A DNA stretch of 64,000 nucleotides from Escherichia coli (GCF_003334305.1 NZ_QOWS01000003.1), one strand, 5' to 3'. Positions 34,214-55,983 are shown, counted from the stretch's first letter. Notes: generated from the sequence alone by a model not told the origin. A program made the numbers and translations.

Positions 34214-34298
34214 GCCGAAGTGGCGAAATCGGTAGACGCAGTTGATTCAAAATCAACCGTAGAAATACGTGCCGGTTCGAGTCCGGCCTTCGGCACCA
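34214..34298 (+). tRNA. leuX: tRNA-Leu (anticodon CAA)
   Basis: 85-nt sequence GCCGAAGTGGCGAAATCGGTAGACGCAGTTGATTCAAAATCAACC...GGTTCGAGTCCGGCCTTCGGCACCA with long variable arm and encoded CCA. Confidence 0.92.
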
Positions 34299-34310
34299 CA
34301 TCGTATGCAA

Positions 34311-34340
34311 ATCGAGTCGCTCAAGGGCGGCTTTTTTTGT
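34311..34340 (+). terminator. Probable leuX terminator (imperfect hairpin followed by T7)
   Basis: GC-rich imperfect hairpin followed by TTTTTTT at 34333-34339. Confidence 0.45.
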
Positions 34341-34499
34341 GCCTGAAATCCAGTATCCGCAAGGCTTTCCTCGCTTTTTCACTCAACCTAAGTCAACCTG
34401 ATTCAATCTACATCAACTTACTGATGCGGGTACAACTGCGGGTATTTCCCGGTTCGATTATGTTTGTACCCACACAGGGCCCTTGAAAGGATACTCATC

Positions 34500-52662: not shown

Positions 52663-54730
52663 GATTTACTGCCTGCTCATCAAGGGGAGTCTGTTGGGGC
52701 TGATAAATTGAACGATAAGCCTGTGGAATATTCCAGATCTCTTGATCGAAATCTTTGAGCTCATAAGCTGTTGATTGCTGATCATGGCGTCGTAAACCAT
52801 GGTTGTTACCAAAAAGCGTATCGAGATCGTCGGTTTTCTCAATCACGAATTGCAGGTTGTCGTCTTGCTTTTGATTGTCTGCCAGCACCAACCGGATCTT
52901 GTTCCAGTCATCGAAAAAGTATTCCTGTAAAAGCGGAATGATCTTTTTCTGGAATGCGATCTTCAATTGTTTAAACGCAGCTTCTTCATCACCGGCATCG
53001 AGTGCATTTTTTACCGGCATAAAGAACGCATGCCCCAGCGTATGTTCACGATCGTAAAGAGCCTCGATGCGGCTATTGAGTTTCTCTAACAACGACTCGA
53101 GCTCTATGCCTTTCACCTTAGCTTCACTCAGTAAAGAGAGATCAGGCATCATTTCGACAAAGTCAAAGCGACGGCGCAAAGCCGTGTCCATCAGAGCTAA
53201 AGAACGGTCCGCTGTATTCATGGCTCCGATGATATCGACATTGCCGGGTACGCTGAAGTGATCACCGCTATAAGCCAGTTGCAGGCTCATCGCATTGGGC
53301 ATGCCTGCACGCTTGTCTACTTCAATGAGTGAGATTAGTTCACCAAAGATCTTGGATATGTTACCGCGATTGATCTCATCAATGAAAATGGCGTAGCGAT
53401 GTCCTGGATCGGCATTCGCACGTTGGCAAAGGCGCATAAAGATACCCGGCTCAATGGGATAAGAGATATTGCCACTCTCGTCAGAGCGAGCGCGTATACC
53501 TTCAATAAATTCTTCATAGCCGTAAGATTGGTGGAACGTAACCACCGCAAAACGCTGGATGGCTTCGGCAGATTTAGGGCCACGTTTAAGTTCGGCGTAG
53601 AGCTCTACCAAATCCTCCACTTGCTCGAGCTGTGAATCAACTAGAAACCATTCGCTGTTATCTGTTTTGTTAAATACGGCAGGCTCACGCCGATTCTTAT
53701 AATCAACGGTTAACGACTCGGGAACTGTATAGGATTGCAAAGCTGCCCAGGCAGTATTCGATAGATTGCCATTACGACCGTTTAATAATGCCTTACGTTG
53801 AAACCACATATGTTCAATAATTTGGCGAACTTTCGCTCGTTTCCCAAGATCGAGCAGCACCAGCGTTATAACCTGCATCCAGTTCAACGATTCAAGGCGA
53901 GAATCCAGCCAGGCATCACGATCAGCGGGAACAGCATGAGAAGTGTACTCTTTCATTTTTTGCTGCAACCTGAAGGTCTTGCCAGTGCCAGGGGGGCCAA
54001 AGAAGATCACGTTAGTTGGTGAATGTAGGATGATCTTGTTCTCGATGGGCTCACTGCGGGTTATGGATGTAGTGCTAGCTACTTTCTCCTGCTTTTGTTC
54101 ATTATCGCGTTCACGGAGCAATTCATAGAGATGCCAGATGGCCATATTCACATAATAAGGATCTGTATCAGGAGATTGGGCGTGTATGGCTTGTTTCAAT
54201 TCATAGTTTTTCTGTAACCAATTTCCGGTCAGTACCAAACCGAGATGGAAGTGCTGATTTAAGAATTCTGCTGCTTTATTAAAAGCATTCTCATCCACAG
54301 TACTGGTGTAGTTTTCTGGCGAGAACGCGGCAAAGACGCGATTTCTCAAACTCCAATACATACGCTTGAGAAGTCCGTTTTCTTTAGCTTGTTGAAGTGC
54401 ATTGCCAACATATTGGTAAGTTTCTTCATCCGGCTGTTGCCGAATTCGTTCAGTTAGTTCTCTAAGCAGTGGCAGGCTTTGCTGATATTCTGCTAAGGAT
54501 GGAACGCCCTGGCGAATACTTGCAATGCCGTTGTCACGCTCATACCAAAGCTGTTTGACCAGACCATCTGTTGCAGGCTCAGCAAAAGTTGAGGTTTGCT
54601 GTAGCAAAGTCGTAAATGCACGGTATCGCTGATACCATCTGGAAGCTGTGTAATTTTTATCTTTCGCCAGGGCATCAATCAATTCACTAATCGTTAGCCT
54701 ACCTGCTTCGACACTATCTACAAGAGTCAT
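52655..54730 (-). CDS. McrB-like AAA+ GTPase with unassigned N-terminal domain of about 230 aa
   Basis: FFGPPGTGKTF, IFIDEINRGNISKIFGEL and IIGAMNTADRS motifs typical of McrB-family GTPases; the N-terminal region has no recognisable motifs. Confidence 0.75.
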   Translation of the reverse strand: MTLVDSVEAGRLTISELIDALAKDKNYTASRWYQRYRAFTTLLQQTSTFAEPATDGLVKQLWYERDNGIASIRQGVPSLAEYQQSLPLLRELTERIRQQPDEETYQYVGNALQQAKENGLLKRMYWSLRNRVFAAFSPENYTSTVDENAFNKAAEFLNQHFHLGLVLTGNWLQKNYELKQAIHAQSPDTDPYYVNMAIWHLYELLRERDNEQKQEKVASTTSITRSEPIENKIILHSPTNVIFFGPPGTGKTFRLQQKMKEYTSHAVPADRDAWLDSRLESLNWMQVITLVLLDLGKRAKVRQIIEHMWFQRKALLNGRNGNLSNTAWAALQSYTVPESLTVDYKNRREPAVFNKTDNSEWFLVDSQLEQVEDLVELYAELKRGPKSAEAIQRFAVVTFHQSYGYEEFIEGIRARSDESGNISYPIEPGIFMRLCQRANADPGHRYAIFIDEINRGNISKIFGELISLIEVDKRAGMPNAMSLQLAYSGDHFSVPGNVDIIGAMNTADRSLALMDTALRRRFDFVEMMPDLSLLSEAKVKGIELESLLEKLNSRIEALYDREHTLGHAFFMPVKNALDAGDEEAAFKQLKIAFQKKIIPLLQEYFFDDWNKIRLVLADNQKQDDNLQFVIEKTDDLDTLFGNNHGLRRHDQQSTAYELKDFDQEIWNIPQAYRSIYQPQQTPLDEQAVNHG

Positions 54731-54899
54731 CGTGACTTTTCCTCTGTTGTGACATTACTTATTTTTTAATTAATATGAGGTATTCTAACTATATTGAGTT
54801 AATCGTTGTGACAAGTGCCTGTTATATATACAACTATCTGTTAACTCAGCTCTAATTTAAATACAATGTAAGGTTGTAGGGTGAATGCTGTTATCAACC

Positions 54900-55829
54900 T
54901 CACCCCCTAAAAACCTCTTTCCGATGCCACTCTACAAACACCTCATAAGGGTAATTTTTACGCACCTGCGGCAACGCAATAGTTTTCCCGTCAAAATCCC
55001 AGAATAATCTCTCAACGATCCCTCCGCCGTTTACCGCATCTGATACCAGTACCCGCATATTTTCATCCAGGCCAATCGATCCTTTATCAAAGGCTTTATG
55101 GTGAATTGCGCAAAGCGCCAGGCCATTAGGAATTTCACAAGGACCTCCTTGCTGTTTCCATTTTATATGCGCCGCTTCCAACGCTACGGTGGTGTCGTCG
55201 TGGCGCATATTAAAGCCACATATCGCGCACTGGTAGTTATAAGCGCGTAATACATTTTTGCGAAATAAAGGGTCGCGCTGTTTACGGATTTGCTGGAGAT
55301 CAAAACCCAGCTCGTCAGCAATTTCTTCCTGAATACTCTCGGTGAAGTGCGCTTCGAGTATCTGTTGCGCCAGAGTATTGATGAGTTTTTTATTGCCGGT
55401 TACCAGGGCGTAGTGCTGTTCATCGAAACCGCCTGCAACGTGGTATTCGTTCAGTTCCTTCACTGGCGGTTGTCGGCTGCTCCCTGCTGTTGAGCAAAGC
55501 TCGGCATTGTGTAATTGCCAGAATCCGTCGCCTTGTAATCGCCAGAACGGCATATCAGGTCGGTAATGTGAACGCTGTGGCCCAAAACGTTCCAGTAAAC
55601 TGTGCAGAGGTTCGTAGATTTCCGATCCATAATCGAAAAGGCGTGGATGTCCATTCAGGTATCCCGCTAATACGTATAGCAATAACAATGGCTTATGCGG
55701 CGCGCGCTGTTCACCTTTGTGCCAGATTTTTATGTTGGCAATTGCCTGCTGTAGCGATTTACTGGAAGCCATTGATATCCCTGGCAGTGAAATAATTGCG
55801 ATCATGCTCGCAAATTTTCGGCTGTTCAA
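54900..55829 (-). CDS. HNH-motif endonuclease (309 aa), possibly McrA-like type IV restriction enzyme
   Basis: C-terminal YQCAICGF...EAAHIKW...NGLALCAIHHKAFD (CxxC...H...N...CxxH HNH pattern); N-terminal 200 aa unassigned. Confidence 0.55.
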   Translation of the reverse strand: MNSRKFASMIAIISLPGISMASSKSLQQAIANIKIWHKGEQRAPHKPLLLLYVLAGYLNGHPRLFDYGSEIYEPLHSLLERFGPQRSHYRPDMPFWRLQGDGFWQLHNAELCSTAGSSRQPPVKELNEYHVAGGFDEQHYALVTGNKKLINTLAQQILEAHFTESIQEEIADELGFDLQQIRKQRDPLFRKNVLRAYNYQCAICGFNMRHDDTTVALEAAHIKWKQQGGPCEIPNGLALCAIHHKAFDKGSIGLDENMRVLVSDAVNGGGIVERLFWDFDGKTIALPQVRKNYPYEVFVEWHRKEVFRG

Positions 55830-55983
55830 GCCTGCAAGTGAAGATATATTACTTTGATCTCATTTGTTTTTTTGCTGCCTGTGTACCCTAATTGCCATGC
55901 GATGTTGCACCGACGCAAACCACCTTTTACGCCGGAGGAGTTAAAAGCGTTGATGGATGCGAATAAATCAAATTAATGAACGC

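Follow-up and report, generated by a model that had tools for sequence, protein, structure and literature searches.

We analysed a 64-kb stretch of Escherichia coli DNA (64,000 nucleotides; hereafter the window), which matches at 100% identity the A7 chromosome, from a strain of the species isolated from orangutan faeces (NZ_CP028767.1). Next to its tRNA gene leuX lies what is very probably a decayed island carrying one MADS-like operon together with a restriction pair of the McrBC family, followed by an SBD-HNH endonuclease gene of the chromosomal backbone. We are also fairly sure that the operon constitutes a single defence system of the MADS-like family. An earlier account made from the DNA alone (the sequence-only reading) had described stacked restriction and defence modules at this site; the defence content was borne out, but the run of genes from the kinase to the methyltransferase and specificity genes is better described as one conserved operon than as several modules.

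The operon occupies positions 35966-51322, the greater part of the island, and contains 10 genes, all on the (-) strand. In order, they encode X128, an N6-adenine DNA methyltransferase (MTase), a specificity subunit (S), X433, X1428, X282, X385, a HerA-type ATPase, X180, and a Ser/Thr kinase. The numbers give protein lengths in amino acids (aa), and PADLOC, NCBIfam and precomputed Pfam returned zero matches for all six of these X proteins (128, 180, 282, 385, 433, and 1,428 aa). From McrB to the kinase, successive reading frames in the window overlap or lie no more than 50 nt apart, and a scan for promoters and terminators gave counts at or below the shuffled expectation. The family of X1428 has 467 detected members of near-constant length, all of them annotated "hypothetical," and the same gene order surrounds it in Pseudomonas veronii, Desulfonema limicola, and Vibrio cholerae. 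A scan of one genome per GTDB species yielded 77 loci, 66 of which had enough flanking sequence for synteny; these were compared by tblastn with the window proteins, taking MTase-S-X433-X1428-X282-X385-HerA-X180-kinase as the nine core genes. In 65 of the 66 loci, at least seven of the nine were detected, collinear and on one strand, and all nine were found in 52. Five of the unannotated proteins occur only in the context of a MADS-like block. Judged by gene order and sequence, the run from the kinase to X128 is thus one co-inherited ten-gene operon and not a stack of modules.

The hosts span about ten phyla overall: Gamma-, Beta-, and Alphaproteobacteria, Desulfobacterota, Myxococcota, Cyanobacteria, Planctomycetota, Acidobacteriota, Verrucomicrobiota, Fibrobacterota, Firmicutes, and Chloroflexi. 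The homologues in P. veronii and P. frederiksbergensis are 53-54% identical. The median identity across loci is 79% for HerA, 61% for the MTase, 59% for X385, 50% for the kinase, 47% for X180, 46% for X1428, 34% for X433, 32% for S, and 29% for X282. In Firmicutes, the X433 and X282 slots hold open reading frames (ORFs) of similar size that are beyond tblastn recognition, and these loci (L079-L089) look like a divergent subtype. One of them, the Herbinix locus L084, has two ORFs of 354 and 351 aa in the X433 slot (7864-9980), a 267-aa ORF without detectable similarity in the X282 slot (14050-14853), and a large NTPase of 1,355 aa. The X1428 family had zero matches in plasmid and phage collections. 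As to neighbours in other taxa, the P. veronii system (L013) lies beside a 787-aa SIR2_2-domain protein (1116-3479), and that of Desulfonema (L014) beside an AAA_21/AAA_15 ATPase, after which comes a protein longer than 1,500 aa (20099-24311); both are consistent with a defence-island context.

The MADS-like system was found by inspection in ten P. aeruginosa islands and has 11 genes (Maestri et al., bioRxiv 10.1101/2023.03.30.534895). Its proteins include a WYL regulator (Madl1), an MTase (Madl3), an S subunit (Madl4), an ATPase (Madl6), a HerA/DptH-like helicase (Madl9), and a kinase (Madl11), and four further madl proteins were left as hypothetical (10.1101/2023.03.30.534895). Annotated positions 3, 4, 6, 9, and 11 recur in the same order in the block described here, so that the window reads MTase-S-x-ATPase-x-x-HerA-like helicase-x-kinase. 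The E. coli block differs in having ten genes, without the WYL/helix-turn-helix (HTH) first gene (madl1), and McrBC abuts it instead. Locus L097, which represents a cluster of 330 sequences, has all 11 genes, beginning with a WYL gene of the BrxR type; there, an integrase follows the kinase and a Tiamat-like SACS/NOV_C gene lies upstream, as in the islands of the preprint. The block was filed as MADS-like because all five annotated positions match and because of the L097 form; we therefore take it to be, on its architecture, MADS-like without madl1. Here, a NurA fold and a PD-(D/E)XK fold are assigned to two proteins without a function in the preprint, and a KAP-like type to the ATPase.

The first gene of the operon in E. 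coli encodes the small protein X128 (Madl2-like; 50936-51322, -), for which Pfam, NCBIfam, and PADLOC gave no match. It is followed by the 715-aa, HsdM-related N6-adenine DNA MTase (Madl3-like; 48738-50885, -), identified by PADLOC (MTase_I, 1577 bits), Pfam (N6_Mtase), and its motifs, motif I (DPTCGSFGF) and motif IV (NPPF) being intact. Its nearest solved structures are type I M subunits, the closest being StySJI M (E=8e-12). Against the NCBIfam MADS2 model it scored 112 bits with a cut-off of 720. The HsdS-related S subunit (Madl4-like; 491 aa; 47263-48738, -) has two target recognition domains (TRDs) and was recognised by PADLOC (Specificity_I, 545 bits) and Pfam (Methylase_S). Between A7 and E. 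coli W, S is only 37% identical: both TRDs have been replaced and the C-terminus is conserved, whereas the rest of the block is at least 99% identical at the protein level except for X433, at 94%. Coverage among the E. coli carriers groups into 100%, 96%, and 92% classes, as would be expected if several S alleles were present. The block thus shares with type I restriction-modification (R-M) systems an HsdM-related N6-adenine MTase, a two-TRD HsdS-like subunit, and allelic TRD exchange; it differs in having six additional genes and no HsdR (a superfamily 2 motor plus PD-(D/E)XK nuclease), for which PADLOC, NCBIfam, and Pfam found no match among the proteins of 34351-54889.

X433 (Madl5-like; 45959-47260, -) and X282 (Madl7-like; 40817-41665, -) are the fast-evolving components, syntenic in 65 and 63 loci, respectively. 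For both, Pfam, NCBIfam, PADLOC, and PDB profile searches, as well as per-member Pfam scans, ended without a usable match. A co-variation of X433 with S is not firmly supported: between A7 and W, X433 diverges only mildly (94% identity), and only at the N-terminus. Between these two genes lies that of X1428 (Madl6-like; 41676-45962, -), a large P-loop NTPase with a KAP-like N-terminal domain, as its motifs and KAP matches indicate. Its Walker A (EWGRGKS, residues 66-72) and Walker B (VVLDE) motifs are invariant, and KAP_NTPase weakly matches 9 of 13 family members at E<=0.1, the best at 1.9e-4. Beyond the KAP-like domain is an extension of ~1,100 residues with a coiled-coil-like segment; a match of residues 1182-1295 to influenza HA2 was rejected as compositional, that is, as coiled-coil noise.

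The remaining genes appear to supply the predicted nucleases, a translocase, and a kinase. X385 (Madl8-like; 39657-40814, -) is a predicted nuclease whose gene overlaps that of HerA by 11 nt. Pfam scans gave a faint hint of NurA and no more, and a PDB profile search had no match; the assignment to the NurA (RNase H-like) fold was settled by structure, as modelled. Residues D87, D107, D146, E277, and D317 are at least 90% conserved and H290 is invariant. A NurA-fold protein is thus encoded beside HerA, and the two make up a genuine HerA-NurA pair; unlike the pairs of archaea and Deinococcus, it forms part of a methylation-based operon of ten genes. HerA itself (Madl9-like; 561 aa; 37982-39667, -) is a HerA-type hexameric translocase ATPase by Pfam (DUF87 plus HAS-barrel), PADLOC (HerA, E=1e-56; mad8, E=7e-26), and structure match, with the Walker A GSGKS and the DPHGEY signature intact. 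It is the most conserved component, at 60-99% identity across phyla. Its closest solved structure is 9x1l_A, the helicase of a HerA-NurA complex (E=4e-48); TdpA of TdpAB (PDB 8wet) is a distant relative (E=2e-7), and the HerA/FtsK "capture systems" and BREX-related systems of Krishnan, Aravind and co-workers concern other neighbourhoods. X180 (Madl10-like; 37432-37974, -) had no match in the PDB profile search and is assigned to the PD-(D/E)XK restriction-endonuclease fold, with a predicted nuclease role. The last gene encodes a eukaryote-like Ser/Thr kinase (Madl11-like; 489 aa; 35966-37435, -; Pfam Pkinase) with a C-terminal non-kinase region. PADLOC matched it to mad6 (E=1e-45) and PD-T4-6 (E=1e-39), and it scored 117 bits against NCBIfam MADS6, with a cut-off of 460. 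With its VAVK, HGDIKPHN, DFG, and APE motifs intact, the kinase is apparently active.

Upstream of the operon lies the McrBC-family type IV, modification-dependent restriction pair (51319-54730, -; McrB 52655-54730, McrC 51319-52662). Pfam found AAA_5 and McrB_lid in McrB and McrBC in McrC, encoded by adjacent genes. The NCBIfam scores (148 bits for McrB and 95 bits for McrC) are both under the EcoKMcrBC equivalog cut-offs, making the pair a member of the McrBC family rather than an orthologue of EcoKMcrBC. In our survey of 5,426 complete E. coli genomes, in which presence was taken as at least 80% coverage, the family was present in 983 (18%), and 289 genomes matched at 99% identity or more. 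The stop codon of McrC and the start of X128 share 4 nt (51319-51322), an overlap kept in Erwinia, Ewingella, and Pantoea (L018, L025, and L090). The possibility that X128 is a third McrBC gene, raised by this overlap, was rejected: X128 homologues directly precede the MTase gene in 37 loci, mostly without McrBC, and the McrBC of ST131 has no X128. The McrBC homology with ST131 ends at 51381, and thus X128 does not travel with McrBC. About 15 other loci have a small HTH_17 gene or a BrxR-WYL gene ahead of X128; that regulator slot is held by McrBC in E. coli, Erwinia, Ewingella, Rosenbergiella, and Pantoea, the only hosts in which McrBC adjoins the MADS-like block. McrBC may supply the promoter, and the two systems could be co-expressed.

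The island that houses both systems begins at the single tRNA gene detected by ARAGORN in the window, leuX (tRNA-Leu(CAA); 34214-34298, +). The P4-type tyrosine integrase gene announced by the sequence-only reading is indeed the first gene, directly 3' of it (34500-35764, +), and it is a pseudogene. Alignment with the intact 421-aa integrase of locus L007 places a single-T deletion near 34588, at codon ~30, and RefSeq labels the gene "frameshifted." In intact orthologues, Pfam recognises Arm-DNA-bind_3, Phage_int_M, and Phage_integrase, and the gene is ~73-81% identical at the nucleotide level to intB of K-12. The long (-) strand run that was also described consists of 13 co-directional genes, from the kinase (35966-37435) to SBD-HNH (54900-55772), with ~19 kb of defence genes; beyond it are an HNH gene fragment, nanS, nanM, nanC, and fimB. 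In 14EC020 (L002), which has almost nothing at leuX, homology to the window stops at 34350 and restarts at 54890, so that, by sequence alignment, the variable island proper extends from about 34351 to 54889. Placing the island's end at the HNH gene, at 55983, agrees with K-12, with which homology stops in the integrase region (81% identity) and restarts at 55981, but not with 14EC020. The GC content of the island is 46.5%, versus 54.1% for the upstream core.

The 21.8-kb segment is present in 207 of the 5,426 genomes, E. coli W among them, and is therefore accessory; the view of a strain-specific island with restriction and defence genes holds, and these genes are not shared by most E. coli. 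Alternative contents occupy the same leuX site in 14EC020, B19, and K-12. As the sequence-only reading stated, the K-12 element is different and larger: between leuX and nanS, MG1655 carries the ~40-kb, unrelated KpLE2, with an intB pseudogene, the insertion sequences (ISs) IS2/IS4/IS30/IS911/IS1, nanXY, fecIRABCDE, yjhU-I, sgc, yjhPQ-topAI, and yjhR. The tRNA anchor and integrase family are common to the window, to KpLE2, and to the catalogued hotspot, with variable cargo beside nanS; K-12 differs in carrying metabolic genes (fec, sgc, nanXY). A review catalogues leuX as hotspot #37 for E. coli defence genes, the most heavily occupied among 41, anchored by the tRNA gene and an arm-type integrase (PMC12707154, citing Hochhauser et al. 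2023), and the cargo given there comprises Type I, BREX, Dnd, Dpd, and DISARM and does not include MADS-like (PMC12707154). The island is thus ordinary and of a known kind, its hotspot having already been catalogued.

The last ~24 nt of leuX (34275-34298) form the attachment (att) core for island integrases, as numerous E. coli matches start at query position 62. In B19 and E. coli W, the same integrase has a degenerate copy of this core upstream of it and is also preceded by another integrated element; the leuX arrangement of these strains is one of tandem accretion at the tRNA. In W (L096; NC_017664.1, 4774006-4790879), the same island has an intact integrase and a different S allele, and a second integrated element, which encodes AbiEii, CbtA/YeeU, and RadC, lies ahead of it. 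In the window, no second copy of the 23-nt leuX 3' end that could serve as attR was found with up to three mismatches allowed, and a general repeat finder gave only short, chance-level pairs; the missing direct repeat reported by the sequence-only reading was thus confirmed. Nor was a distal att repeat found among the carriers examined. Without attR and with a frameshifted integrase, the island is not mobile as it stands, and it is a fixed, decaying remnant at leuX.

Decay extends to the operon. The MADS-like block is present in 207 of the 5,426 genomes (3.8%), and some part of it in 287. In B19-type genomes (L003), a single 15,948-bp deletion has removed 35016-50963, from mid-integrase to the last 28 nt of X128, leaving McrBC and SBD-HNH proteins that are identical. 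Genomes H62-H66 keep only the HerA-X180-kinase side, and the block of H47 and H49 is interrupted by IS insertions (IS4-like ISVsa5). Such recurrent deletions and insertions suggest that the operon is often inactivated, perhaps owing to a cost or to autoimmunity.

The SBD-HNH gene (54900-55772, -) encodes a phosphorothioated-DNA-binding restriction endonuclease of the ScoMcrA type (NCBIfam PT-DNA_restrict, NF045808, 437 bits with a cut-off of 180; Pfam DNA-SBD_ScoMcrA plus HNH_2). It is intact in 1,706 of the 5,426 genomes (31%), and remnants occur in 4,871 (90%), including one of 248 nt in K-12. Because homology with 14EC020 resumes from 54890, we regard the gene as lying outside the variable island and, on this alignment evidence, belonging to the older, shared chromosome backbone. 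A second HNH endonuclease gene (55872-55976, +) is itself a remnant, annotated by RefSeq as a partial CDS: a gap in the alignment to L002 marks an internal deletion of ~572 bp (window 55871-55882 versus L002 7415-7987), and the gene is intact, at 651 nt, in 14EC020. Next to it, nanS (55984-56964, -) is a full-length ORF of 326 aa, ~97% identical to K-12 NanS. In its place, the RefSeq annotation of A7 has a partial pseudogene (56398-56964) and, on the opposite strand, a 29-aa "hypothetical protein," which is probably an error of annotation. Two genes upstream of leuX, the core gene yjgR (31367-32917, -) encodes an ATPase with a HerA-like C-terminal domain; it is unrelated to the island HerA, is present in all strains examined, and could mislead HerA-based defence finders.

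A different account of the block, implicit in the sequence-only reading, takes it for independent modules that happen to lie side by side: type I M and S genes orphaned from HsdR, a system built on HerA, and a PD-T4-6-type defence kinase acting by itself. It draws on the kinase matching the single-gene PD-T4-6 nearly as well as mad6, on HerA matching generic defence HerA models, and on H62-H66, which retain only the HerA-kinase side; moreover, defence islands do stack unrelated systems. Chance neighbours would hardly be expected to remain collinear on one strand, with at least seven of nine genes, in 65 of 66 loci from Proteobacteria to Firmicutes, nor to have frames that overlap or nearly abut, no HsdR, and unannotated proteins confined to the block, and we consider this account unlikely. 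That the block is instead a canonical MADS system (mad1-mad8), as in P. aeruginosa SMC4386, has in its favour PADLOC matches to mad6 (1e-45), mad8 (7e-26), mad2 (2e-20), and mad5 (6e-16), and the preprint's statement that MADS is most frequent in Escherichia (10.1101/2023.03.30.534895). Canonical MADS consists of mad1 (HTH), mad2 (MTase), mad3 (AbiEii/Toprim ATPase), mad4 (DUF4276), mad5 (S), mad6 (kinase), mad7 (DptG-like), and mad8 (HerA); it restricts phages, which escape by epigenetic change, and its authors' model makes MAD6, MAD7, and MAD8 mandatory (10.1101/2023.03.30.534895). Both combine an MTase and S with a Ser/Thr kinase and a HerA-type ATPase within an operon, and by analogy both would discriminate self from non-self by methylation. 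Gene order and gene number differ, however, and the block has NurA-fold, small restriction-endonuclease-fold, and giant KAP-like proteins and no counterparts of Mad3, Mad4, or Mad7. There was no match to mad1; Pfam, PADLOC, and NCBIfam found neither Mad3 (AbiEii/Toprim) nor Mad4 (DUF4276) in the block; and no window protein matched mad7 in PADLOC, so that the MAD6-MAD7-MAD8 set is incomplete. With NCBIfam MADS2, MADS5, and MADS6 scores 4-6 fold under the cut-offs, an assignment to canonical MADS is improbable.

Doubt might instead fall on immunity itself. HerA-NurA is best known as a machine for resecting double-strand breaks, and that complex is also the closest solved relative; together with the lack of any anti-phage assay of the MADS-like family in the literature searched, this would allow a DNA-repair, maintenance, or epigenetic-regulation module of a mobile element, for instance with HerA-NurA resecting ends when the island recombines and a phase-variable methylase governing expression. 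We give little credence to such a role: the block sits in the most occupied E. coli defence hotspot, flanked by type IV restriction enzymes; in other taxa, the genes beside it include one with a SIR2 domain, BrxR-type WYL regulators, and one that is Tiamat-like; TRDs are exchanged between S alleles, as is typical of restriction specificity; MADS, a related system, is known to restrict phages; and plasmid and phage collections lack the X1428 family. Finally, leuX, the SBD-HNH remnants, and nanS-fimB are near-universal, as they would be if the whole region were core E. coli DNA, but with the MADS-like block in 3.8% of complete genomes, McrBC in 18%, and other contents in 14EC020 and K-12, that idea can practically be dismissed.

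A single MADS-like defence operon remains the reading that we prefer, and several points weigh against it. Its identity comes from architecture and not from comparison with P. aeruginosa sequences. The literature searched contains no experiment on MADS-like and no NurA or restriction-endonuclease fold assignment, and the defence function is therefore argued by analogy and context. Profile searches gave no fold match of any kind for X433 and X282, and PDB profile and per-member Pfam scans gave none for the C-terminal ~1,100 residues of X1428. The HTH or WYL gene of other taxa is absent from the E. coli version in the window, so the E. coli operon could be regulated differently or be silent.

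How the components might work together can be sketched, although the specific division of labour and the order of events are tentative, and we would put them at somewhat less than even. The M+S pair would methylate bipartite sites in host DNA, their sequence being determined by the S allele, and the same M/S module would recognise unmethylated incoming DNA, with X433 and X282 probably helping recognition and the large NTPase serving as a scaffold or switch. X180 (PD-(D/E)XK) would then make a DNA end, onto which HerA-NurA would load to degrade the DNA processively, in place of HsdR. The kinase could gate the nuclease or trigger a backup abortive response, which is conjecture. McrBC would cover modified DNA, and SBD-HNH would cover phosphorothioated DNA. 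It is conceivable, if perhaps not probable, that MADS-like represents a distinct R-M class: a type I-style M+S coupled to a HerA-NurA shredder instead of HsdR, priming of that shredder by X180 as a small PD-(D/E)XK nickase or cutter, supervision by a giant KAP NTPase and a Ser/Thr kinase, and, in Enterobacterales, transcriptional fusion to McrBC.

The leuX hotspot and the MADS-like name are known; what is added here are the fold assignments for two proteins and the presence of the system in E. coli W. The value lies in the island's cargo, as MADS-like has been named yet is uncharacterised in the literature searched. The conserved operon, the two fold assignments, and the swapping of S provide hypotheses for knockout in a tractable host, and because MADS-like is present in E. 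coli W, they are easy to test. If the proposed scheme is true, a single operon with McrBC would, in Enterobacterales, attack both unmodified and hypermodified DNA. Such work would bear on how methylation-guided, kinase-containing, HerA-driven immunity works, in MADS too.

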